A DNA stretch of 64,000 nt, from positions 734,308 to 798,307 of the forward strand of contig CANKZG010000001.1 of NCBI GenBank assembly GCA_947488435.1. Direction: 5' to 3'. The notes beneath the pieces were generated by a model, which saw nothing but the letters and a program-made list of their open reading frames with translations, was not told where the DNA came from and ran no database searches. Source of the stretch: an uncultured Flavobacteriaceae bacterium (GTDB lineage Bacteria; Bacteroidota; Bacteroidia; Flavobacteriales; Flavobacteriaceae). Shown here piece by piece: positions 19,423 to 31,450 of this stretch (the stretch's first letter is position 1; every line of letters begins with the position of its first letter). Made by a program: the position numbers and the translations under genes.

Positions 19423-20433
19423 TCAGAAATATAACTGTGCTGCCTTCGAAAATTTTGTTGCCATCCGTTTACGCAAACGTTCAGGCTGCAATACCTCCAT
19501 GGCCTCTCCAAAACCTAAAATCAGACGTTCCAATTCAAAATTCAATTTCACTTTTATATTAATTTCAACACTTCCATCTTCATTTTCTTTTTCAATAATC
19601 TGTGAATGATGTATAGGTTTAGTCACGACATAAGGAGCATTGTATTTGTCGATCCATAATTTAATATTGGAAGCCCGTTCCCCTTGGTTCACGGTAACAC
19701 CCACAACATCCTTGTAAAAGGTATCTGCATCAAATTCATAATTTGAATAAGAAATAGCGAAATCATAGTCAATCGAAATGATTCGGTCAAGGGCAAGATT
19801 AACTATGCCTTTGTTCTTATTTCCCATTCCTATTAGAAACCATCGGTTGTTAAACTCCTTCAATAAGCAGGGATGGAAAGTAATTACATTGGCAGTAGCA
19901 GCTTTAAAAGACTTGTACTCCACCTTTAAAACCACTTTTTTCTGAATGGCTTGATAGAGTTCGTCAAGCCAATGTAATCCTTTTAGATTCTCGTTCTTAT
20001 CTAGATGAATAATAGATGACTGATGCGTCTTCTCAGTATATACTTTATCTTCTAATCGTTGAATAATTCCACCCAATTCTGAAAACAAAGAAAAGTCTTT
20101 AAACTGCTTTAGCATTTCTACAGTTTCAGAAAGTACATTCATGTCGTTTTCAGTTATGGGGATATCCGTAATGGAATAATCCTCATCTTCGTATTTGTAA
20201 TACTTTCTATCATAAGCAACAATTGGAGCGTTGTAACCTAACTTATCACTTCGCATCAACTGAATATCGAGTTGCACCGTCCGTTTGCTCACATTCACTT
20301 CCCTACCTTCGTATTCATATAAGGCATCTGAACAGGCTTCAATTAAATCATCTAAAGTCCATTGACGGTAGTTGTTTTGAAGGCATTTGTCAATAGTTTT
20401 ATATCGGATTAGGGCGTTTTTGTTGAGGGCCAT
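19423..20433 (-). CDS. HTH + WYL-domain transcriptional regulator (recalled by resemblance)
   Basis: 336 aa; N-terminus MALNKNALIRYKTIDKCLQN...WTLDDLIEACSDAL...VSKRTVQLDIQLMRS matches my recollection of the winged-HTH N-terminus of Bacteroidetes WYL-domain proteins, followed by a ligand-binding-like middle region; co-operonic with the HD protein (1-nt overlap). Confidence 0.55.
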   Translation of the reverse strand: MALNKNALIRYKTIDKCLQNNYRQWTLDDLIEACSDALYEYEGREVNVSKRTVQLDIQLMRSDKLGYNAPIVAYDRKYYKYEDEDYSITDIPITENDMNVLSETVEMLKQFKDFSLFSELGGIIQRLEDKVYTEKTHQSSIIHLDKNENLKGLHWLDELYQAIQKKVVLKVEYKSFKAATANVITFHPCLLKEFNNRWFLIGMGNKNKGIVNLALDRIISIDYDFAISYSNYEFDADTFYKDVVGVTVNQGERASNIKLWIDKYNAPYVVTKPIHHSQIIEKENEDGSVEINIKVKLNFELERLILGFGEAMEVLQPERLRKRMATKFSKAAQLYF

Positions 20434-21047
20434 TATAATGTATTTAGTTCATTGTACAAATTTGCTCTTGCCTGTTTTTCAAAAGTGGATTGAAAACCCT
20501 TAGTTTGATAAATTGTGTTCTTGTCTAAAAAGTGATGAAGTACTTTCTTTCGTCCTTTACGATACATAATACCGGGAATTTTAGCATACTCTTTTCTAAT
20601 CTTCAGAGCATAATCTTGGTATACCTCTTCGGACTGTCCTAAAATTGCTAAATCAAAGTCTATTAACAATTTCTCATCATTCGATTTGCCATTATGGTGT
20701 TTCGTACAAAGAATAAGTGCTTCAATTCGTTGAATTCCATCTACATCAAATCCAATATCTTGTAATACCTGATTGGCTTTTATTGCACTTTTCTCCTCGT
20801 TATCCTTTTTCCAAATACTATAGACAAAATCATGATAGTAAATAGCTAAAAGCATCTCTTCAGTATTTTCGATATCATCTTTGAACTTATCGAAATAGCC
20901 ATAGAGTTCGGTAAGGTGATCTAGATTGTGGTATTTTCGAAACTTTTGTCCATAAGCGCCAGCTAGTTCATTCCATAAAGCGGCAACTTCATTTTCCGTT
21001 GGTACATATTTAGAGAAAATCTTGGCGTGTCTTTCTTTTAAGTCCAT
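20433..21047 (-). CDS. HD-domain metal-dependent phosphohydrolase (putative RNA-end-processing enzyme)
   Basis: 204 aa; H...LDH...YYHD motif pattern (YHNLDHLTELY, AIYYHDFVY) consistent with an HD fold. Confidence 0.45.
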   Translation of the reverse strand: MDLKERHAKIFSKYVPTENEVAALWNELAGAYGQKFRKYHNLDHLTELYGYFDKFKDDIENTEEMLLAIYYHDFVYSIWKKDNEEKSAIKANQVLQDIGFDVDGIQRIEALILCTKHHNGKSNDEKLLIDFDLAILGQSEEVYQDYALKIRKEYAKIPGIMYRKGRKKVLHHFLDKNTIYQTKGFQSTFEKQARANLYNELNTL

Positions 21048-21083: not shown

Positions 21084-21104
21084 CTACGCAAAATAATTGC
21101 GTAG
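21084..21104. promoter_or_regulatory. perfect 7-7 palindrome CTACGCA-aaataat-TGCGTAG in the divergent HD-WYL / NTase-rtcB promoter region (copy 1 of 3)
   Basis: Read directly from the sequence; arms are exact reverse complements; see copies at 22930 and 30414. Confidence 0.45.
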
Positions 21105-21136: not shown

Positions 21137-21874
21137 ATGATGAAAAGTAAACTTAAAAATCTAGCAACCGACAAGAAAGTAGACATACTGTTTGCTTGTG
21201 AATCTGGAAGTAGGGCCTGGGACTTTGCTTCCCCAGATAGTGATTTTGATGTTAGATTCGTATATACACATCCAATAGACTGGTATTTGTCAATCTCGGA
21301 AAAACAAGATACCATCGATATAATGGATGGTGATTTTGATGCAGTCGGTTGGGAACTCAGAAAGAAGCTACGCTTACTTAAAAAGTCGAACGTACCTGCA
21401 TTGGAGCATTTATTTTCACCTATAATTTATATTGAAGAAAGTTCATCCATTAAGGAACTGCGAGCGATAGCGAAAGATTGCTTTTCTCCTGTAGCTTGTA
21501 TGTATCACTATTTAAGTATGAGCAAAAAATATGAAGAAAAACTGACTGGTGAAACTGTAAAACTAAAGAGTTTGTTTTATGCATTGCGAACAGCTTTGGC
21601 GGGCAAGTGGATACTTGAACACAATACGATGCCACCTGTTGTTTTTAGCAAGATGTTATCTCTTATAAAAAGGGATGAGGCTGACGAAATAAGACACTTG
21701 ATGACTATAAAATCGGAGAATAACGAAAGTTATTTACATTCCAGAAATGAGAAAGTCGTAAACCTTATAGCAAGTGTTTTAGTTGTTAATGAAAAGTTTG
21801 CAAAATCGCTTTCGGGTGGGAAACCTGATACTGATAGAATAGATAGTTTTTTATATAACACTTTGACCAAATGA
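21137..21874 (+). CDS. DNA-polymerase-beta-superfamily nucleotidyltransferase, most likely the RtcB-associated PF10127 (RlaP-like) family
   Basis: 245 aa; GSRAWDFASPDSDFDVRF = G[SG]-x9-13-DxD nucleotidyltransferase motif. Confidence 0.6.
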   Translation: MMKSKLKNLATDKKVDILFACESGSRAWDFASPDSDFDVRFVYTHPIDWYLSISEKQDTIDIMDGDFDAVGWELRKKLRLLKKSNVPALEHLFSPIIYIEESSSIKELRAIAKDCFSPVACMYHYLSMSKKYEEKLTGETVKLKSLFYALRTALAGKWILEHNTMPPVVFSKMLSLIKRDEADEIRHLMTIKSENNESYLHSRNEKVVNLIASVLVVNEKFAKSLSGGKPDTDRIDSFLYNTLTK

Positions 21875-22923
21875 AAACAATAGAAGAACTAAAAGCTTCA
21901 GGAAATATCATATTTGAATGTATTAGCGGTAGTAGAGCATACGGACTCGCTACCGCTTCTTCTGATACCGATATTCGTGGAGTTTTTGTACTGCCAAAAG
22001 AAAAGTATTATTCATTGGAATATGTAGGTCAAATAAATAATGTCACGAACGATATTGTTTATTATGAACTCAAAAAGTTCATAGAACTTCTTTCAAAAAA
22101 CAACCCTAACATTCTTGAATTGTTAAGTGTTCCTGAAGACTGCATACTCTCAAAGCATCCGCTATTCGATAAAGTCAAGTCTGAGTACTTTCTTTCAAGA
22201 TTGTGCAAAGACACCTTTGCGAATTACGCTTTTACCCAAATAAAAAAGGCAAGAGGATTGAAGAAAAAAATAGTTAATCCTGTTGAAAAAGAACGAAAAT
22301 ATGTTACTGACTTTTGTTTTGTTCGAAAAGAAAAGGGCGCTATGCCTTTGAATACTTTTTTAGAAAATGAAGGTTTCGAAGTGGACCATTGTGGATTGGC
22401 TAAAATAAGTCACATGAAAGATTGTTACAATCTCTTCTACAACCCTTCTATGAAGTATAGTGGCGTTGCAAGAGAAAATGCGAATGAAGTCTGCCTTAGT
22501 TCTATTCCAAAATCGGAAGTGCCAGCGGCTATTTTATATTTCAATCGAGATGGTTATTCATCCTATTGTAAAAAGTATAAAGAGTATTGGTCTTGGGTAG
22601 AAAAGAGAAATGATGAACGTTACAAGAGTAATATCTCACATAGCAAGAACTACGATGCTAAAAACATGATGCACACTTTTCGTCTTTTACATATGGCCAA
22701 AGAAATAGGGGCTGATAATAAAATTATGGTAAAAAGACCAGACCGAGATTTTCTGCTAGCTGTAAAAAATGCTGAATTCGAATATGAAGAGTTGGTAGAA
22801 AGAGCTGAAAAGTTAAAATCAGAATTGGAGGTTACATATGAAAAAGCTGATTTAATGGAACGCCCAGACTTGGATATAATAAATGAACTATTGGTTGAAA
22901 TAAGAGCTCAATTCTACGAATAA
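21871..22923 (+). CDS. second PF10127-like nucleotidyltransferase (paralog; ATGA overlap with upstream gene)
   Basis: 350 aa; ISGSRAYGLATASSDTDIRGVFVLP motif; extra C-terminal helical domain. Confidence 0.6.
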   Translation: MKTIEELKASGNIIFECISGSRAYGLATASSDTDIRGVFVLPKEKYYSLEYVGQINNVTNDIVYYELKKFIELLSKNNPNILELLSVPEDCILSKHPLFDKVKSEYFLSRLCKDTFANYAFTQIKKARGLKKKIVNPVEKERKYVTDFCFVRKEKGAMPLNTFLENEGFEVDHCGLAKISHMKDCYNLFYNPSMKYSGVARENANEVCLSSIPKSEVPAAILYFNRDGYSSYCKKYKEYWSWVEKRNDERYKSNISHSKNYDAKNMMHTFRLLHMAKEIGADNKIMVKRPDRDFLLAVKNAEFEYEELVERAEKLKSELEVTYEKADLMERPDLDIINELLVEIRAQFYE

Positions 22924-22929
22924 ATTTTA

Positions 22930-22950
22930 CTACGCAAAATAATTGCGCAC
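22930..22950. promoter_or_regulatory. palindrome copy 2 (CTACGCA-aaataat-TGCGCAC, slightly degenerate) between NTase-2 and rtcB
   Basis: 19/21 identical to the copy at 21084. Confidence 0.35.
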
Positions 22951-23040
22951 ATGAGTCGCAAGTTTGTACCGGAATCATAAAGAAGCCGGTTCGCCGACTT
23001 CATGTAGTGCCCCGTCGAACGTTGGAGTCGGTGGGGCTAA

Positions 23041-24908
<1,868 letters not shown>

Positions 24909-25058
24909 AATTATTCTCATATTTGCAACTGGATAAATAAATATAACAAGAGAAAATAGTAAAATATGCCAGATTATTTAAATCACATACCGGACGCTAA
25001 GAAGCTAGGATTGCATCGAATTGATGGGTAGACACTATTGAGAAAACGATACATTACT

Positions 25059-25088
25059 AGAGCGTCCAAGAAATTAGGCGCTTTTTTT
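25059..25088 (+). terminator. rho-independent terminator after the rtcB operon
   Basis: AGAGCGTCC-aagaaatta-GGCGCT followed by TTTTTTTT; homologous to the terminator at 28484. Confidence 0.5.
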
Positions 25089-25264
25089 TATATACATTTT
25101 TTAGAGAATTCTCAAAATTCTAAAAGAATGCTATTTGAAAGCTAAGCATTTGAAAAACAGCAAATTGATGAATTATGCTGCTATCTGTTAAACAACGGAC
25201 CAGGATACTTATGTTTTGATTTTATTATAACTAATTGATAATCAGTAATTTAAATTATATTTTC

Positions 25265-25295
25265 TTGTGTAATCCAAAAATCCGTTTTAGCTTTG
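25265..25295 (+). promoter_or_regulatory. Bacteroidetes sigmaA-type promoter (-33 TTG ... -7 TAgcTTTG), cassette A
   Basis: TTG at 25265-25267, 20-nt spacer, TAGCTTTG at 25288-25295; the whole block is duplicated at 28701-28731. Confidence 0.45.
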
Positions 25296-25299
25296 CATC

Positions 25300-25474
25300 G
25301 CAATACAGCAACAAAATTTATTAACTGAAGTATATATGACTTTTTCAAACACATATCAGAATACACTAAAAGCACCAGGTGCTTTATTAGTGTCGCTTCA
25401 GGACTTCTATAATACATAAAGCTACTATAGTTAATGATAGAAAGTCCGAAGCCCTAAAGTTTCGGACTTTTTTA
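25300..25474 (+). ncRNA. candidate leader / small RNA A (~170 nt) ending in a terminator-like hairpin upstream of rtcB2-prfH
   Basis: Promoter-to-hairpin unit; hairpin AGTCCGAA-gccctaaagt-TTCGGACT + TTTTT at 25443-25474; no ORF; 5' ~80 nt homologous to cassette B. Confidence 0.35.
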
Positions 25475-25576
25475 TGCTCTAATTTTTAGTGACACATCTT
25501 TCCGAAACATTTTATCAAATCAAGTATTGCTCTTCCATTTTTGGAACAGCCGTACTATTCCTTAAAATGAAATCTC

Positions 25577-26968
25577 ATGGGAAAGAAATTAAGCGGAAAG
25601 GACCTAATCAAATTGGGTTTTCCAAAGAACAATAGTATCAATATTACATTAGGTCAAATCAATAGATACCATAAGCGAAAAAATAAAGAGCAGGTATTGA
25701 TGGAAGCTAAAAAAGTATTGTTGCATCCTGAGGACTATCAAGGTGATGGGGTTTGGGGTAAGATAGCAGAAAGCTTGTTAGATCCAGTTGTGGTCAAAAA
25801 ACAAGTGCTGAATTCGGCAAGAGCACCTTTCCAAATCTATGGCGAGAACGAAATAGAGGAGCAAGCAAAATACCAATTGTATGATGCTTTAAAACTTCCG
25901 ATTTCTGTTGCTGGGGCTTTGATGCCCGATGCCCATAGTGGTTATGGCTTGCCTATCGGGGGTGTTTTGGCTACTAAGAATGCGGTGATTCCATATGGAG
26001 TTGGTGTTGATATCGGTTGTCGCATGTGTTTGACTATTTATCCGATTCCGGTTTCTTACCTCAAAGGAAAGAAACATCAATTGGCAAATATGCTCTCGGA
26101 GCATACCAAGTTCGGAATGCGGGAAACCCATAAGATAAAGCATGACCACGAAATCTTTGAGCGCGATGAATTTAAAAATATTCCGCTGATAAAAAGATTA
26201 AAGGATAAAGCGTACAAGCAATTGGGAACCTCAGGTGGTGGAAATCACTTTGTAGAATTCGGAAAGGTCACTATTACAGATGACGAGAACGAATGGGGGT
26301 TGAAATTGGGCGAATATCTAGGTGTGCTTTCCCATAGTGGTTCAAGAGGATTAGGTGCAAACATTGCAAAACATTACACCTATTTGGCAACAAAGCAATG
26401 TCCGTTACCCAAACATGTGCAGCATTTGGCATGGTTGGATTTGAATACCCATGACGGACAAGAATATTGGTTAGCTATGAATCTAGCAGGTGATTATGCA
26501 AAAGCATGTCACGATGATATTCACGCAAGACTAGCGAAACTTTTGGGTACAAAACCAGTAGTTAAAATAGATAACCATCACAATTTTGCTTGGAAACAAG
26601 AGGTAAATGGTGCCGAGTGTATTGTGCATAGAAAGGGAGCAACTCCCGCCGCTAAAGGCGAGTTGGGAATTATTCCTGGGTCAATGACAGCATCGGGTTA
26701 CATCGTAAAAGGTTTGGGCAATACAGAGAGTTTAAACTCTGCTTCCCATGGTGCTGGACGGCTTTTTTCAAGACGAAAGTGTAAAGAAACGTTTACACGA
26801 AGCGAAATTAAAAAGCAACTAGACTCAAATGAGGTAACACTAATTGGTGGAGGAATTGACGAAGCACCCATGGCCTACAAAAACATTGAAAAGGTCATGG
26901 CAAATCAACAAGAATTGGTTGAAGTACTCGGAACCTTTACACCCAAAATAGTACGAATGGATAAATAA
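25577..26968 (+). CDS. rtcB: RtcB-family RNA ligase (paralog 2, RtcB2-like, paired with prfH)
   Basis: 463 aa; DAHSGYGLPIGG, GGGNHFVEFG, SHSGSRGLG, NHHNFAW, SHGAGRLFS. Confidence 0.85.
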   Translation: MGKKLSGKDLIKLGFPKNNSINITLGQINRYHKRKNKEQVLMEAKKVLLHPEDYQGDGVWGKIAESLLDPVVVKKQVLNSARAPFQIYGENEIEEQAKYQLYDALKLPISVAGALMPDAHSGYGLPIGGVLATKNAVIPYGVGVDIGCRMCLTIYPIPVSYLKGKKHQLANMLSEHTKFGMRETHKIKHDHEIFERDEFKNIPLIKRLKDKAYKQLGTSGGGNHFVEFGKVTITDDENEWGLKLGEYLGVLSHSGSRGLGANIAKHYTYLATKQCPLPKHVQHLAWLDLNTHDGQEYWLAMNLAGDYAKACHDDIHARLAKLLGTKPVVKIDNHHNFAWKQEVNGAECIVHRKGATPAAKGELGIIPGSMTASGYIVKGLGNTESLNSASHGAGRLFSRRKCKETFTRSEIKKQLDSNEVTLIGGGIDEAPMAYKNIEKVMANQQELVEVLGTFTPKIVRMDK

Positions 26969-27060
26969 CAGATAGTAGTTAGCGACGGTATTTATAAAGC
27001 ATATTGAAAACCTAAGATTATTGGAATACCAACGCTAGCTACTTCTTTTAAAGAAATAAA

Positions 27061-27753
27061 ATGGAAAAGATAATTCAAATAACAACAGGTAGAGGCCCAG
27101 CGGAATGTAGCTGGGTCGTTGCCAAAGTACTCAAGCGATTTTTGGAAGAGACCAAATCGAGAGGATTTAAACATAGTATCCTCCATCGAGAAACAGGAAG
27201 CCAAAACGGGACAGTACAATCGGTGACTATCCGCTTGACAGGAAAAAATATGGAAGCATTTTTAGCAACTTGGTTGGGTACTATTCAGTGGATAGGCGTT
27301 TCAACATTTCGAAAATACCATAAACGAAAGAATTGGTTTATCGGGGCTTTCGAATTGAAACAAACGCAAACTACGAAAGTGGATGAGCGAGATATTTCGT
27401 TTCAAACCATGCGGAGCACCGGTCCTGGTGGCCAGAATATCAACAAGATTAATTCTGCTGTTCGGGCAATTCATACCCCCACAGGAGTACAAGTAGTTGC
27501 GATGGATAGTCGTTCTCAACATCAAAACAAAAAACTAGCAATAGCTCGGTTAAAAGAAAAAGTAAATGAAGCTAACCTAGAGCAGTTAAAGGGAAGCATG
27601 ACAGATCAATGGGAGAACCATTTGAATCTGCAACGAGGAAATCCGGTCCGAGTTTTTAAGGGTACAGATTTCAAACATCAAAAAGTGGATAAAAGTTATA
27701 AACCAAAACGGCAAAAGCTAAAAAACGATTTCAAACATCAAAAATGGGACTGA
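27061..27753 (+). CDS. prfH: peptide chain release factor H (RF-H)
   Basis: 230 aa class-I release-factor GGQ-domain protein (STGPGGQNINK) lacking a full codon-recognition domain; immediately downstream of an RtcB paralog as in the E. coli rtcB2-prfH pair. Confidence 0.75.
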   Translation: MEKIIQITTGRGPAECSWVVAKVLKRFLEETKSRGFKHSILHRETGSQNGTVQSVTIRLTGKNMEAFLATWLGTIQWIGVSTFRKYHKRKNWFIGAFELKQTQTTKVDERDISFQTMRSTGPGGQNINKINSAVRAIHTPTGVQVVAMDSRSQHQNKKLAIARLKEKVNEANLEQLKGSMTDQWENHLNLQRGNPVRVFKGTDFKHQKVDKSYKPKRQKLKNDFKHQKWD

Positions 27754-28298: not shown

Positions 28299-28483
28299 TA
28301 GTAACACAACGTTTAAAAATAACATCTTTGTAAAACAAATGACACCGAGAAAGTTACATATCATCCAACAAATAGAGCTTTGGCTCTGCGATTTTCGCTC
28401 AGAATATAGTGAGCGAAACGGGCGCTATGTGACTTTATCCAACAGTTGATTCTATGTAAATCACTTATTAAACGATAAAATGA

Positions 28484-28514
28484 AAGCGTCCAATTACAAT
28501 TGGGCGCTTTTTTT
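28484..28514 (+). terminator. rho-independent terminator after the prfH operon
   Basis: AAGCGTCCAATT-ac-AATTGGGCGCTT followed by TTTTTTT. Confidence 0.55.
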
Positions 28515-28700
28515 GTGGAATTTTTTAAAGTAAAATGCGAAAAGTAGTAAACGAATAAAATAGCGTAGTTGAAACAGAAAACAATTGGTAGACAGACAGT
28601 TGTAATAAATGTTTAAAGTCCGCAATATGACGGACAGGGATTCTATTGTTCATATTTTAATTTAACTATCTGATTATCAATAAATTAAATTAATTTTTTC

Positions 28701-28731
28701 TTGTATAATTTAAAAATCGTTTTCATCTTTG
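28701..28731 (+). promoter_or_regulatory. Bacteroidetes-type promoter, cassette B (-33 TTG ... CATCTTTG)
   Basis: Same spacing (20 nt) and flanks as cassette A; sits upstream of the tRNA array. Confidence 0.4.
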
Positions 28732-28737
28732 CACCGT

Positions 28738-28948
28738 CATAAATTATAAACCCATTACCAATGGAATCTTTAAAAAGACATATACAATTATTGGAACTAC
28801 ATCTCTGTTCGCCGAAATGGTTTGAACGGTTTTATAGTGATCAACTGTCCATTTGTAAACAAAGGAGAAATACGTGTATCATGTGTTGACGTCATAGACA
28901 CCATTCACATATGTACAGAGCATCTCCGATAAAGAGGTGCTTTTTTTA
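28738..28948 (+). ncRNA. candidate leader / small RNA B (~200 nt) ending in a hairpin + T7 tract 22 nt before the first tRNA
   Basis: Hairpin GCATCTC-cgataaa-GAGGTGC + TTTTTTT at 28920-28948; 5' part homologous to leader A. Confidence 0.35.
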
Positions 28949-28969
28949 TGCGATTATTTTTTGAAAAAA

Positions 28970-29057
28970 GGAAGAGCAAGCCAAAGGGCGGTGGCCACAC
29001 TCTTGAAAAGTGTTCGGAGTAACCAGTCTCGTGTGGGTTCGACTCCCACCTCTTCCG
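28970..29057 (+). tRNA. tRNA-Ser(TGA), class II
   Basis: Hand-folded: acceptor GGAAGAG/CTCTTCC, anticodon arm ACACT-CTTGAAA-AGTGT, long variable arm, T-arm GTGGG-TTCGACT-CCCAC, G73; 88 nt. Confidence 0.8.
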
Positions 29058-29062
29058 CAACT

Positions 29063-29149
29063 GGAGGGTAGGCAAATACTGGTTTGTTGCGCTCGCCTGC
29101 TAAGCAAGTCTACCATAAGGTAGTGAAGGTTCAATTCCTTTGCCCTCCG
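29063..29149 (+). tRNA. tRNA-Ser(GCT), class II; the only array member with an encoded CCA
   Basis: Acceptor GGAGGGT/GCCCTCC (one G-U), loop CTGCTAA, variable-arm hairpin CTACC-ataa-GGTAG, G73 then CCA; one C-A mismatch in anticodon stem. Confidence 0.7.
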
Positions 29150-29156
29150 CCAAATT

Positions 29157-29229
29157 GACAAGGTGGCTGAATAGTTAAGGCAATGGTCTGCAAAATCATT
29201 TTTTATGAGTTCGAATCTCATCCTTGTCT
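29157..29229 (+). tRNA. tRNA-Cys(GCA)
   Basis: 73 nt; acceptor GACAAGG/CCTTGTC, loop CTGCAAA, T-arm ATGAG-TTCGAAT-CTCAT, U73 (Cys identity). Confidence 0.8.
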
Positions 29230-29240
29230 CTAAATATTAT

Positions 29241-29323
29241 GGAAGTATTGAGCAATTGGCTGGCTCGCTTGACTGTAAATCAGGTTCAGAAATGACATGT
29301 AGGTTCGAGTCCTGCTGCTTCCA
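29241..29323 (+). tRNA. tRNA-Tyr(GTA), class II
   Basis: Acceptor GGAAGTA/TGCTTCC, anticodon arm CTTGA-CTGTAAA-TCAGG, long variable arm, A73. Confidence 0.75.
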
Positions 29324-29327
29324 CAAC

Positions 29328-29398
29328 GCGTCTGTGGTGTAATGGTAGCATTTGGGTCTCCAAAACCTATGATTGAGGTTCGAATCCTTAAGGACGCG
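29328..29398 (+). tRNA. tRNA-Trp(CCA)
   Basis: Anticodon arm TGGGT-CTCCAAA-ACCTA as in E. coli tRNA-Trp, T-arm TGAGG-TTCGAAT-CCTTA, G73; one mismatch at the acceptor-stem base. Confidence 0.65.
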
Positions 29399-29401
29399 CA
29401 A

Positions 29402-29474
29402 AGTACCGTAGTTCAAAGGCTAGAGCGCCCGACTGTCTATCGGGAAGGTACGGGTTCGAGTCCCGTCGGTACTG
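29402..29474 (+). tRNA. tRNA-Asp(GTC) with unusual U37
   Basis: Acceptor AGTACCG/CGGTACT, anticodon arm CCCGA-CTGTCTA-TCGGG, T-arm ACGGG-TTCGAGT-CCCGT resembles E. coli tRNA-Asp; G73. Confidence 0.65.
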
Positions 29475-29479
29475 CGAAA

Positions 29480-29552
29480 CTGGGAAGATAACGGTGGTTA
29501 GTTTACCCGCTTTGGAAGCGGGAGGTCGCAAGTTCGAATCTTGCTTCCCAGA
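29480..29552 (+). tRNA. tRNA-Pro(TGG)
   Basis: Acceptor CTGGGAA/TTCCCAG, anticodon arm CCCGC-TTTGGAA-GCGGG, T-arm GCAAG-TTCGAAT-CTTGC, A73; only 5 nt after tRNA-Asp. Confidence 0.8.
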
Positions 29553-29614
29553 CGACTTAGTCAAATCAAGTTTACTTGAATTTGATTAGCAAGGAGTAGT
29601 TGTAAGAAAGACGA

Positions 29615-29636
29615 AGTCAATCTTGCTTCTCAGACT
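29615..29636 (+). pseudogene. 3' remnant of tRNA-Pro (T-loop 3' half + acceptor 3' strand), direct repeat of 29531-29552
   Basis: AGTCAATCTTGCTTCTCAGAC vs GTTCGAATCTTGCTTCCCAGAC (17/20). Confidence 0.5.
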
Positions 29637-29639
29637 TTT

Positions 29640-29712
29640 GCTCTGTTCGTATAATGGTTAAGTACGCCTGACTTTCTATCAGGAAATAGGGGTTCGATTC
29701 CCCTACAGAGTA
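29640..29712 (+). tRNA. tRNA-Glu(TTC) with unusual U37
   Basis: Acceptor GCTCTGT/ACAGAGT (G1-U72), D-stem CGTA/TACG, anticodon arm CCTGA-CTTTCTA-TCAGG, T-arm AGGGG-TTCGATT-CCCCT. Confidence 0.65.
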
Positions 29713-29717
29713 CAAAA

Positions 29718-29790
29718 TGAGGTATAACTCAGTTGGTAGAGTACCGTGCTTTTAACACGGGAGTCTTAGGTTCGAGTCCTAATGCCTCAA
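29718..29790 (+). tRNA. tRNA-Lys(TTT)
   Basis: U1-A72 acceptor TGAGGTA/TGCCTCA, D-arm ACTC-AGTTGGTA-GAGT, anticodon arm CCGTG-CTTTTAA-CACGG, A73. Confidence 0.75.
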
Positions 29791-29795
29791 CAATT

Positions 29796-29868
29796 GCAGG
29801 GATGGCGAAATGGCAAACGCAGCTGGTTTAGAACCAGTACTCTGAGAGTTCGAATCTCTCTCCCTGTA
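29796..29868 (+). tRNA. type-I tRNA with Leu anticodon TAG (Leu-like D-arm, variable arm only 5 nt)
   Basis: Acceptor GCAGGGA/TCCCTGT, D-arm GCG-AAATGGCAAA-CGC (Leu-like), anticodon arm GCTGG-TTTAGAA-CCAGT, variable ACTCT, T-arm GAGAG-TTCGAAT-CTCTC, A73. Confidence 0.5.
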
Positions 29869-29875
29869 CTATGAT

Positions 29876-29949
29876 GCCCCACTAGCCCAACCGGCAGAGG
29901 CAAAGGACTTAAAATCCTTAAAGTCCAAGTTCGAATCTTGGGTGGGGTA
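29876..29949 (+). tRNA. type-I tRNA with Leu anticodon TAA (variable arm 5 nt)
   Basis: Anticodon arm AAGGA-CTTAAAA-TCCTT nearly identical to E. coli tRNA-Leu(UAA) arm, but variable region only AAAGT; T-arm CCAAG-TTCGAAT-CTTGG, A73. Confidence 0.5.
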
Positions 29950-29954
29950 CAAAT

Positions 29955-30079
29955 AAGCTTATGGTGTAATGGATAGCACGCAGGATTTAACTCACGCTCT
30001 TTTTACTTGAAATAAGGAGTTCGTGAATGCAGAAAAGCATTTCTAACCCTGAGGTATGAGTTCAAATCTTGTTAGGCTT
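29955..30079 (+). ncRNA. tRNA-like element (125 nt): canonical acceptor/D-arm/T-arm with a ~60-nt insertion in the anticodon region
   Basis: 5' AAGCTTA-TG-GTG..CAC D-arm (11-mer TGGTGTAATGG shared with tRNA-Trp); 3' ATGAG-TTCAAAT-CTTGT T-arm + TAGGCTT acceptor strand pairing 7/7 (one G-U) with the 5' end; split CAGG/CCTG anticodon stem. Confidence 0.3.
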
Positions 30080-30085
30080 GCAAAT

Positions 30086-30157
30086 AGACCCGTGATGTAA
30101 CGGTTAGCATACAAGGTTTTGATCCTTGTTGTAAAGGTTCAAATCCTTTCGGGTCTT
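30086..30157 (+). tRNA. tRNA-Gln(TTG)
   Basis: Acceptor AGACCCG/CGGGTCT 7/7, D-stem ATGT/GCAT, anticodon arm CAAGG-TTTTGAT-CCTTG, T-arm AAAGG-TTCAAAT-CCTTT. Confidence 0.7.
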
Positions 30158-30162
30158 CAAAT

Positions 30163-30236
30163 GGTGTCTCTAGCTTATTTTGGTAAAGCGTCCCACTGTG
30201 AATGGGAAGAACAGGGTTCGAGTCCCCGAGTACACC
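30163..30236 (+). tRNA. tRNA-His(GTG) with encoded G-1 pairing C73
   Basis: Anticodon arm TCCCA-CTGTGAA-TGGGA, D-stem GCTT/AAGC, extra 5' G opposite C73 (His hallmark); two mismatches near the acceptor-stem base. Confidence 0.6.
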
Positions 30237-30242
30237 CAAAAG

Positions 30243-30315
30243 GGAACAGTAGCAAAGATGATCAATGCGGCGGATTGAAGATCCGACGATACAGGTTCGA
30301 GTCCTGTCTGTTCCA
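30243..30315 (+). tRNA. tRNA-Phe(GAA)
   Basis: Acceptor GGAACAG/CTGTTCC 7/7, anticodon arm GCGGA-TTGAAGA-TCCGA, T-arm ACAGG-TTCGAGT-CCTGT, A73. Confidence 0.7.
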
Positions 30316-30319
30316 CAAC

Positions 30320-30392
30320 AGGAGTATAGTTCAATTGGACAGAACGCTGGGCTACGAACCTAGAAATGCGAGTTCGAGTCTTGCTACTCCTA
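30320..30392 (+). tRNA. tRNA-Arg(ACG)
   Basis: Acceptor AGGAGTA/TACTCCT 7/7, D-stem GTTC/GAAC, anticodon arm CTGGG-CTACGAA-CCTAG, T-arm GCGAG-TTCGAGT-CTTGC, A73. Confidence 0.8.
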
Positions 30393-30413
30393 CTAAAACA
30401 AGAGAAATTTTAG

Positions 30414-30434: not shown

Positions 30435-30498
30435 TTATGGTTCAATTTTGCCTTGTAATAAAAGCAGTCCTTATAGGGAAAACGGGGCTGTAATAGTT

Positions 30499-30530
30499 CC
30501 CTGCAGCAAATTTAATGCTGCAGGGTTTTG
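30499..30530 (+). terminator. strong rho-independent terminator closing the first tRNA block
   Basis: 9-bp GC-rich stem CCCTGCAGC-aaatttaat-GCTGCAGGG followed by TTTTG. Confidence 0.7.
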
Positions 30531-30536
30531 ATAAAT

Positions 30537-30740
30537 ACCTCTTTAGCTCAAAGGGAAGAGCTGTGGTAAAGGATATTGATCGTAGCCACGGAGTGATTGG
30601 AAGACGTTGTTAGCGGCGTGCCTGCTAATGAATAGAATTTGCAGAAGCACCGAAATGAACAAGATTCAAAATAGGGAAGCGCATTTATAGCCAATCTGTT
30701 CGTTTCGACGAAAGTGCCAGTTCGAATCTGGCAAGAGGTA
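30537..30740 (+). ncRNA. tRNA-like element (204 nt): acceptor stem 7/7, D-arm and T-arm intact, anticodon arm replaced by ~130 nt of structured sequence
   Basis: 5' ACCTCTT-TA-GCTC-aaagggaa-GAGC; 3' GCCAG-TTCGAAT-CTGGC-AAGAGGT-A; interior has several hairpins incl. a UUCG tetraloop (TTCGT-ttcg-ACGAA) but no anticodon stem-loop. Confidence 0.3.
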
Positions 30741-30750
30741 CAAAGTTCAT

Positions 30751-30780: not shown

Positions 30781-30920
30781 ACAATATCAAGCTGGTCTTG
30801 TTGGGTGTTTCTGTATAGCACTATTGTGTGAAGCGTTGCCATAGGGTATAATGTTTTCATGTACAACTTGACTTGATGGTTTCGATTGTTCGCCAAAAAA
30901 CGATCACCACTCTGTGAGTC

Positions 30921-31012
30921 ATGGGTTCGAATCCCATCAGTCCCAAATGGGACTGTAGTTCAGTTAGGTTAGAACAACAGACGGATGCGCAGGTTCGACT
31001 CCTGCCAGCGGC
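30921..31012 (+). pseudogene. tRNA debris: T-arm + 3' acceptor (ATGGG-TTCGAAT-CCCAT-CAGTCCC-A) immediately followed by its matching 5' acceptor + D-arm (GGGACTG-TA-GTTC...GAAC) and a second T-arm lacking an anticodon arm
   Basis: Hand-folded; looks like a permuted or tandem-decayed tRNA pair; no complete cloverleaf. Confidence 0.4.
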
Positions 31013-31023
31013 CACTTTTTTTA

Positions 31024-31067
31024 GGCCCTGTAGCTCAGTTGGCTAGAGCACTACACTCATAATGTAG
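31024..31067 (+). pseudogene. 5' two-thirds of a tRNA-Met/Ile2(CAT): acceptor 5' strand, D-arm, anticodon arm; T-arm and 3' end missing
   Basis: GGCCCTG-TA-GCTC-agttggcta-GAGC-A-CTACA-CTCATAA-TGTAG, then no TTCGA T-loop and no CAGGGCC partner. Confidence 0.45.
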
Positions 31068-31450
31068 GTTTCTAAAGCTGACCATCTTTTAAAACTGGTC
31101 TCCAAGCCCTGTTAGGCTTAAAATGACAAAAACCGTAGGTATAAGTCAGTTGGTTTTTCTTCGGATAAATCAACAGTCTTGAAACTACTTTGAAATAGTG
31201 AATTTTTGATGCGAAAGGCAATTTCTTTTTGAATATCCTTCCCTCGGAAAAACCAATAAAAAGTATTGGCAACGTCGACCGAAGCATACCAAAAAAACAA
31301 ATCGTAACGAGCTTCGAAAACCAATATTTCCGTAACGGATAGATGAGTTATAGTTGCGGTTTTTTAAAAGAGAAAAACAAATTAATACTAAATAAGAAAT
31401 CGTTTAACCCGTTCGTCCGTCACTAGACTGGCGGACACAAATTTTAAGTA

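Follow-up and report, generated by a model that had tools for sequence, protein, structure and literature searches.

Among described regulators, the closest counterpart of the system reported here is DriD, a WYL-family activator of Caulobacter crescentus whose ligand is single-stranded DNA (ssDNA). DriD binds ATACGAC-N7-GTCGTAT, a site that has CGXC-N7-GXCG as its conserved core and is AT-rich in the middle. Such sites are found in suboptimal promoters, where they overlap the position of an absent -35 element at a constant distance from the -10 element, and one of them lies in the promoter of driD itself. Here we describe three copies of a comparable dyad, CTACGCA-N7-TGCGTAG, on a stretch of 64,000 nt (the window) from an uncultured Flavobacteriaceae bacterium (contig CANKZG010000001.1, positions 734,308 to 798,307 of the forward strand). 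The copies lie in an island of RNA-repair genes that also contains the gene of a predicted WYL regulator. We estimate at roughly 0.68 the probability that the dyad is the site of this adjoining homodimeric regulator within dedicated RNA-repair promoters, where the protein would act as an activator by analogy with DriD and PafBC.

The likeness to DriD concerns protein, site and promoter. As predicted from the sequence and from an AlphaFold2 (AF2) model, the regulator is, like DriD, a homodimer of chains of about 330 residues with a winged helix-turn-helix, a WYL and a WCX domain. Its putative site is, like the DriD box, a 21-bp pseudo-palindrome with 7-bp arms, an AT-rich 7-nt centre and CG pairs at identical spacing (CGCA-N7-TGCG). 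It overlaps a missing upstream promoter element (-33 here, -35 for DriD) and keeps a fixed distance to the downstream element (-7 here, -10 for DriD), the transcription start sites (TSSs) being predicted in our case. Suboptimal core promoters and a site in the regulator's own promoter are also shared. On the other hand, the half-site is TACGCA rather than TACGAC, the helix-turn-helix (HTH) regions display no detectable sequence similarity, and the host is a member of the Bacteroidota with their -33/-7 grammar of sigma-A promoters. The regulon here consists of RNA repair and non-coding RNAs, whereas that of DriD consists of DNA-damage genes (didA, recA, bapE). Having the geometry of a DriD box in front of RNA-repair genes, the element would thus work like a DriD box outside the DriD regulon.

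PafBC from Actinobacteria, the second-best structural match of our regulator, is also a WYL-family activator with a stress-repair regulon, and acts beside the -10 element in place of a -35 element (the RecA-NDp motif). It differs in being a heterodimer or fusion, in its asymmetric motif and in its DNA-damage regulon, whereas we find a symmetric dyad and a single-gene regulator. With regard to gene content, RtcB, Ro60/TROVE and tRNA-like Y RNAs are placed under one damage-responsive regulator, RtcR, in the rsr-yrlBA-rtcBA and rtcBA operons of Salmonella and E. coli (PMC7790460). Unlike the WYL protein, RtcR acts with sigma-54 as an enhancer-binding protein and has a CARF domain, and unlike those operons the regulon here is split over separately promoted modules and additionally includes RlaP, Rnl1, Pnkp/Hen1 and a two-hairpin RNA. 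We rejected sigma-54/RtcR-type control of rtcB, as matches to the sigma-54 promoter TGGCAC-N5-TTGC were at chance level (40 against 41 expected), with none upstream of rtcB or rlaP, and the adjoining regulator is the WYL protein. BrxR and CapW are likewise HTH-WYL-WCX dimers on inverted repeats near their own genes. They are repressors beside phage-defence systems (BREX, CBASS) and gave weaker profile and fold matches, whereas the neighbours here are RNA-repair genes. For the sensing of RNA damage and the induction of RtcB-type repair, little has been described in bacteria outside the enterobacterial RtcR/sigma-54 paradigm. We found no literature on WYL regulators with RtcB/RlaP regulons, with tRNA arrays or with this motif; the RNA-repair survey of Burroughs and Aravind (2016) was outside our coverage and may mention it.

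Dyad sites and promoter geometry

The three dyads and the boxes associated with them are located as follows.

21084-21104, + strand: dyad site 1, CTACGCAAAATAATTGCGTAG, between the divergently transcribed HD-like/WYL operon and RlaP; 38.5 bits; predicted to span -41 to -21 of the rightward promoter
22930-22950, + strand: dyad site 2, CTACGCAAAATAATTGCGCAC, ahead of the rtcB leader; 35.6 bits
30414-30434, + strand: dyad site 3, CTACGCATAATCATTGCGTAA, starting 21 nt past tRNA-Arg, the last tRNA of an array (end at 30393); 27.6 bits
21113-21120, + strand: -7-type box CAAATTTG in the site 1 promoter; transcription predicted to start near A21125, which leaves RlaP (ATG at 21137) a leader of 12 nt
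22959-22966, + strand: -7-type box CAAGTTTG in the site 2 promoter; transcription predicted to start at G22971, the first base of a conserved GGAATCATAAA
30443-30450, + strand: -7-type box CAATTTTG in the site 3 promoter; transcription predicted to start at G30455
21061-21068, - strand: leftward -7-like box TAATTTTA of the HD-like/WYL operon, 15 nt from the dyad

All three copies had been noticed earlier from the sequence, and we found them in place and in one orientation (+ strand). The arms at site 1, described as perfect over 7 bp, in effect extend to 8 bp (CTACGCAA-N5-TTGCGTAG), and the site is flanked by divergent starts, ATG 21047 (-) of the HD-like/WYL operon and ATG 21137 (+) of RlaP. 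Site 2, the reported 19/21 copy of site 1, is located between the stop codon of the second RlaP-like gene (22923) and the start of rtcB (23053). The third copy follows the last intact tRNA, again in agreement with the original prediction.

The claim that such a recurrence is unlikely by chance depended on how the motif was worded. When a loose 19-mer with up to two mismatches was searched in the 64-kb window, three matches were observed against 1.33 expected and at least three occurred in 11 of 100 shuffles, which is not significant. We therefore used tighter patterns and a position weight matrix (PWM) trained solely on sites from other genomes, and with these the claim held. Exact ACGCA-N7-TGCG gave three sites (five matches over both strands) in the window against 0.20 expected, a result found in 0 of 100 shuffles, and an 18-nt core with up to three mismatches gave three against 0.10 expected. 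With the PWM, only the three dyads scored high; the runner-up in the 64 kb reached 3.1 bits, and the maximum over 20 shuffles was 12.

Alignment of the three window sites revealed a common CAAnTTTG, 8 nt past the dyad. TAnnTTTG is the -7 box of sigma-A promoters in Bacteroidota, an essential element that is usually paired with a TTG at -33, and it has been mapped at -12 to -5 in the TSS map of Flavobacterium psychrophilum (PMC9723704). On this geometry the dyad is predicted to span about -41 to -21 (-43 to -23 by the older -7 convention). Its predicted centre is near -31 to -33, at the place of the -33 element of Bacteroidota sigma-A promoters.

The arrangement was then followed in 80 comparison loci (L001-L080), which were fetched via the WYL protein, with the window as the 81st sequence. 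The exact core was present in 76 of the 80 orthologous loci. With a module defined as ACGCA-N7-TGCG-N14-16-TTTG with at most one core mismatch, 157 modules were found in 79 of the 81 sequences, with the layout CTACGCA-N7-TGCGTAG, then 11 nt, then nAnnTTTG. The dyad consensus is CTACGCAAAAtnATTGCGtAG, in which C4, G5, C17 and G18 are conserved at 98-100%. Although the presence of TTTG is required by the search definition, its offset from TGCG is concentrated on one value, 15 nt in 125 modules compared with 16 nt in 25 and 14 nt in 7. Among exact oriented matches, 91 have TTTG 15 nt past TGCG, and other offsets are few. The full TAnnTTTG occurs in just 7 of the 157 modules, the T of TA being present in 10% and the A in 90%, and a TTG at canonical -33 spacing was found in none of them (0/157). 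The base 5 nt past the box is a purine in 90% of the modules, which agrees with the mapped position of the box at -12 to -5. The module cores would be recognizable yet deviant sigma-A-type promoters that are systematically suboptimal, and the dyad, judged by this arrangement, is not a free-standing operator but the upstream half of a promoter of fixed geometry.

The module is conserved at orthologous positions in many genera of Bacteroidota whose WYL proteins are 66-94% identical to that of the window. They cover Flavobacteriaceae, Crocinitomicaceae and contigs labelled Chitinophagaceae and Bacteroidales. Of the 157 modules, 148 are oriented away from the WYL gene. When equal lengths of DNA flanking the WYL gene were compared, the side with the repair genes had 150 modules and the opposite side 4 (p = 4e-39), all 4 of the latter being one-mismatch matches. 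In 50 of the 81 loci, the centre of the dyad precedes the start codon of the WYL gene by 37-53 nt (mostly 47-51); in 17 more the dyad is 301-800 nt upstream, a distance consistent with an intervening gene, as in the window. We also observed a flavobacterial-type WYL locus on two contigs from metagenome-assembled genomes labelled 'Cyanobacteria bacterium' (L007, 91%) and 'Limnohabitans sp.' (L054, 69% protein identity), labels that probably reflect binning contamination.

As these loci had been anchored on the regulator, a search with the motif alone was added. In 241 million metagenome records we found 121 instances, 35 of which have TTTG at +14 to +16. A homologue of WYL, RtcB, RlaP, Pnkp, Hen1 or Rnl1 was encoded on the same fragment in 20 of the 35 box-positive cases and in 1 of the 86 box-negative cases (Fisher p = 1.7e-12), and a distance of about 35-40 nt between dyad and WYL start is frequent in the loci anchored on the motif. 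Box-less matches sit in unrelated DNA of higher GC content and were taken as chance matches. The full module gave no match in viral contigs.

The WYL regulator and competing readings

The genes of the leftward operon are the following.

19423-20433, - strand: predicted WYL regulator of 336 residues; helical, HTH-like N-terminus, then WYL and WCX
20433-21047, - strand: 204-aa partner protein, co-operonic with the regulator, with an HD-like motif recognized by eye only

In the regulator, Pfam identifies WYL at residues 155-221 and WCX at 256-331. The AF2 model consists of N-terminal helices, two short strands, long helices and the WYL-WCX part; its predicted local distance difference test score (pLDDT) is 70.7 overall, good for WYL-WCX and poor (31-77) for the N-terminal HTH, a three-helix bundle and the linker. 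Profile searches against the PDB gave E-values of 1e-5 for DriD, 4e-3 for PafB, 1.5e-2 for PafC, 0.06 for BrxR and 0.5 for CapW. Foldseek with the AF2 model gave 2e-12 for DriD (full-length, 8tp8), 1e-10 for PafBC, 2e-7 for CapW and 3e-6 for BrxR. By profile and by modelled fold, then, the closest solved relative of the regulator is DriD, at a protein identity of about 15%. Single-sequence searches of the PDB with the whole regulator or its N-terminal 87 residues returned no WYL-family structure and only matches at chance level. The HTH is too diverged for its recognition helix to be compared with that of DriD (Arg37, Arg41, Glu40).

No named NCBIfam family matched the regulator, and PADLOC assigned it only generic WYL models and, over the same region, one Cas3c model. 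The HD-like and RlaP proteins had no PADLOC match, and no defence system adjoins the locus. The regulator is 100% identical to a protein on a bacterial contig and 66-94% identical to its Flavobacteriaceae homologues. Of the 'HD/WYL-type operon' that had been proposed, the WYL part is thus borne out by Pfam. The HD part is not confirmed by any profile. The 204-aa partner gave nothing significant in Pfam, NCBIfam, PADLOC or the PDB, with a weak DUF4202 match only, and we dropped the HD assignment, which rests on H...HD-like motifs seen by eye.

The proposal that the dyad is an operator for this regulator is strongly supported by the comparative evidence, namely the proximity to the WYL gene, the conservation, the 150 to 4 bias and the DriD-like geometry, and the protein encoded at 19423-20433 very probably binds it. 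Given binding, it probably activates, a view that draws on analogy: the fixed 15-nt spacing from TTTG favours an activator site, and activation is the preferred mode in view of the rigid phasing, of core promoters that are weak and of nearest relatives that are activators. A nucleic-acid signal received by the WYL domain would enable the dimer to bind the dyad, as in DriD and PafBC, and the bound dimer would recruit RNA polymerase to otherwise poor core promoters. A product of RNA damage is a natural, though speculative, guess for the signal.

In the divergent region, the same dyad may also act on the leftward promoter of the regulator. At site 1, TTTTG on the minus strand of the dyad falls near -36 to -32 of the HD-like/WYL promoter. 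Among the 50 loci with a directly adjacent dyad, 23 have a conserved TAnnTTT-type box that starts 14 nt past the dyad on the WYL strand. Read on that strand, the arrangement is ...ATTTTGCGTAG-N14-TAnTTTTC, which puts TTTG close to the canonical -33 position for transcription of the regulator itself, an overlap that implies autoregulation.

Several points weigh against activation by the WYL protein. What the sequences show directly is the motif, with its geometry, conservation and positional bias, the genes and covarying RNA behind it, and the relationship of the fold; binding, activation, the ligand and the exact TSSs are inferred from sequence and fold. For the N-terminal HTH, no similarity to DriD could be detected by sequence, and this is also a part in which the AF2 model is weak (pLDDT 31-77). 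A weak -33 element is common in Bacteroidota promoters, so that its absence alone is no proof of dependence on an activator, and the WYL regulators BrxR and CapW are repressors on inverted repeats, for which an overlap with -33 is equally suitable. As to sampling, the 80 loci were gathered through the WYL gene and co-occurrence in them is partly built in, a bias that the metagenome scan and the two-sided density test lessen without removing it. The frequency of the motif was counted only within the 64-kb window and the collected loci.

Taking these points into account, we consider a repressor operator a serious alternative to activation, albeit an unlikely one. A WYL dimer would block the -33 region of both divergent promoters in unstressed cells and be released by its ligand, as with BrxR and CapW. 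The dyad does overlap the promoter, and the TTTG on the WYL strand near the regulator's -33 is a classic layout of autorepression. In addition, BrxR and CapW, which bind inverted repeats, are among the fold matches, and the -7 box alone can suffice in Bacteroidota promoters. However, a 15-nt phasing kept in 80% of the modules is typical of activators that contact the polymerase and would be unneeded for steric repression. The core promoters are suboptimal (T of TA in 10%, -33 TTG in 0/157), the activators DriD and PafBC are well ahead of CapW and BrxR by both profile and fold, and there is no adjoining defence system.

We find it improbable that the combination of dyad and box is read by a different protein, for instance an alternative sigma factor or a transcription factor encoded elsewhere, with the WYL protein being merely a co-regulated neighbour. 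It is true that WYL-dyad binding was deduced by comparing sequences, and 15 of the 35 box-positive metagenome loci have no homologue of the island genes on the fragment, many fragments being short. On the other hand, a spacing of 37-53 nt separates the dyad from the WYL ATG in 50 of 81 loci, and one of about 35-40 nt in many loci found through the motif. The 7-N7-7 geometry and CG core of the dyad match the site of the closest solved homologue. The TTTG box is of the sigma-A type rather than of the extracytoplasmic function (ECF) or sigma-54 type, and sigma-54-like matches are at chance.

The original prediction had also offered an RNA-level role as an alternative, with the dyad as a small-RNA hairpin or processing site; we included a terminator in this reading. 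The 21-mer indeed folds at -9 kcal/mol (z = -5.8), site 3 was flagged in a scan for terminator-like structures, and read-through could transcribe sites 2 and 3. The arms, however, do not vary as a stem would: pair 1-21 is broken in 41 cases and compensated in 3, pair 3-19 is broken in 32 and compensated in 4, and the core sequence is invariant, whereas a true RNA hairpin further downstream has 53 compensated cells. No U-tract follows the dyads. With one-sided arm variants that break the pairing, and with the fixed distance to the box, the orientation bias and the place upstream of the predicted TSS all pointing to a DNA site, we rejected this alternative as very improbable.

That the dyad is a dispersed repeat resembling repetitive extragenic palindromes (REPs) or miniature inverted-repeat transposable elements (MITEs), or a chance recurrence of no specific function, has a negligible probability: although the loose pattern was not significant in the window and the bare 15-base motif does occur by chance in unrelated high-GC metagenome contigs, a frequent motif without positional bias, against which the original prediction had cautioned, is, within the DNA covered, at odds with only three high-scoring sites in 64 kb, all within a 10-kb repair island, with the 150 to 4 bias, with orthologous conservation at 66-94% WYL identity, and with the fixed box and the box-dependent association with RNA-repair genes.

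Genes and RNAs downstream of the modules

The units that would be activated through the dyads in the window are listed below.

21137-21874 and 21871-22923, + strand: two RlaP-family nucleotidyltransferase genes (PF10127), driven by the predicted site 1 promoter
22971-23052, + strand: two-hairpin leader RNA of rtcB; covariance-model match at 23001-23041, 51.2 bits
23053-24441, + strand: gene of the RNA ligase RtcB, preceded by site 2 and the leader RNA
30455-30532, + strand: stand-alone small RNA, paralogous to the rtcB leader; covariance-model match at 30490-30530, 36.1 bits; fold z = -4.07
30536-30748, + strand: tRNA-like RNA of about 210 nt; minimum free energy -61.7, z = -2.86

The two 'NTases' of the original prediction are indeed nucleotidyltransferases, of the RlaP family. 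Its placement of the copies at module boundaries also agrees with our results, in that each boundary corresponds to a separate predicted promoter for one unit of a single regulon. Each functional unit would have its own copy of the dyad, namely the RlaP pair, the leader RNA with rtcB, and the small RNA with the tRNA-like RNAs after the array, and all units bearing a dyad would form one regulon.

The first open reading frame (ORF) was recorded for the 119 modules with an ORF start within 400 nt. It encodes RtcB in 62 (median leader 86 nt), RlaP in 11 (median distance 18 nt) and a T4 Rnl1-type ligase (RNA_lig_T4_1) in 4; single cases are a Pnkp kinase-phosphatase, Hen1 (Hen1_N), an RNase T-like exonuclease (RNase_T), Barstar and a DUF434/DUF5616 protein. 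The metagenome loci add Ro60/TROVE, which is module-driven by position in two of them (L103 and L138), and a RING_SCO0854-like protein. The other 38 modules have no ORF within 400 nt downstream, and some of them precede the two-hairpin RNA.

Two metagenome loci carry further elements behind a dyad promoter. In L193, a tRNA-like RNA with an insert follows at 1415-1536 (Rfam tRNA, 43.7 bits over 122 nt). An unexpected regulon member is a protein of 756-780 residues encoded downstream of the dyad promoter in L193 (1634-3973) and L198 (1654-3921). That of L193 is a distant relative of the MXAN_6230/SCO0854 RING-domain family; for that of L198 the only match was a weak one to Prok-RING_4.

The two-hairpin RNA consists of a variable hairpin 1, the sequence GUAGYGC and a hairpin 2 with an AACGnnGGAGU-type loop; in the stand-alone small RNA, UUUU follows hairpin 2. 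In hairpin 2, 99.3% of alignment cells pair, with 53 double (compensated) changes, and 0 of 500 shuffles reached the observed score. A covariance model of the RNA core gave 57 matches in 1.6 Mb, all on the repair strand, of which 54 lie 26-53 nt downstream of a module and 2 of the remaining 3 follow visibly decayed dyads. The window holds exactly two matches, one after site 2 and one after site 3. Neither the rtcB leader nor the small RNA is covered by a family in Rfam. The structure is thus a new covarying RNA motif that stands nearly always behind a dyad promoter, and it could be a sensor, decoy or substrate RNA.

In the tRNA-like RNA of about 210 nt we recognized a closing stem of acceptor type (UACCUCUU/AAGAGGUA), a hairpin similar to a D-arm and a T-arm (GCCAGUUCGAAUCUGGC), with a large insert between these parts. 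This RNA follows the small RNA in the window, and stands directly after a dyad promoter in three comparison loci (L003, L004 and L016). Degenerate tRNA-like elements continue at 30790-31110, where all YrlA, tRNA and tmRNA matches are below threshold (Rfam YrlA and tRNA in 30875-31110). The RNAs at 30536-30748 and 30790-31110 are likely Y-RNA-like molecules. A Ro60 gene is absent from the 64-kb window.

Together with the DriD-like regulator, this gene content raises a broader possibility, which we put forward tentatively: an SOS-like response to RNA damage in Bacteroidota, in which the WYL sensor would detect damaged RNA and switch on a modular regulon coupled to back-up tRNA arrays. The signals might be fragments of cleaved tRNA or rRNA, or fragments of the two-hairpin RNA that heads rtcB. 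The regulon would include the ligases RtcB and Rnl1, the end-healing enzymes Pnkp/Hen1 and RlaP, Ro60 with Y RNAs, and small RNAs. If this is correct, the system would be the functional counterpart of RtcR/CARF, built on a WYL protein and equipped with a sensor RNA of its own, and the activator logic of DriD and PafBC would extend from DNA-damage to RNA-damage responses. Whether RNA or ssDNA is the ligand of the WYL domain then becomes a direct question. For a phylum-level group, the results supply a sequence-defined cis-element together with a candidate regulator, and make a regulon of RtcB, RlaP, Rnl1, Pnkp/Hen1, Ro60 and Y-like RNAs predictable from sequence. The dyad promoter is also a potential stress-inducible tool for flavobacterial genetics.

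A second RtcB gene, paired with PrfH, was observed at 25577-27753, inside the island; PrfH scores above the TIGR03072 equivalog cut-off. The pair is the ribosome-repair module known from E. coli. The PWM detected no dyad module in the intergenic region upstream of it (24908-25577), and the pair may thus be regulated differently.

The tRNA array and other parts of the window

An array of 15 tRNAs occupies 28970-30393 and is followed by the run of tRNA-like, YrlA-like elements. Among the 81 loci, 23 have arrays of at least five tRNAs, which without exception run in the direction of the repair genes. A module starts 23-27 nt past the last tRNA in 9 of these 23 arrays, including that of the window, and the position of site 3 is therefore that of a conserved junction between array and module.

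The array itself was examined as a direct target of the dyad in the window and rejected, since the PWM scan found no dyad upstream of it and it has its own canonical promoter and leader. The promoter is of the sigma-A type (TTG-N20-CATCTTTG, 28701-28731). The leader, of about 200 nt (region 28700-28969), is conserved in an alignment that includes L014, L018 and L025, and ends in a strong terminator (28917-28943, followed by T7) about 20 nt before the first tRNA. The position of this terminator just ahead of the first tRNA suggests that conditional read-through controls expression of the whole array.

Upstream of the array, a short conserved transcript was noted at 28300-28520, with the start AAATGACACC and a terminator at 28484-28520. 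It possibly holds an ORF of 36-46 residues that begins with MTP.... In the same three loci (L014, L018 and L025) the transcript is dyad-driven; in the window the dyad has decayed, and a -7-like box remains near 28320.

The 15-tRNA array had prompted us to consider a phage origin. This was rejected, as megablast against 50,697 phage records was negative, the WYL homologues are bacterial and no module was found in viral contigs. A flavobacterium resembling Maribacter is the most likely source of the window. Elsewhere in the window, a giant ORF of 3490 residues extends over 42662-53134 on the + strand and is unrelated to the dyads.

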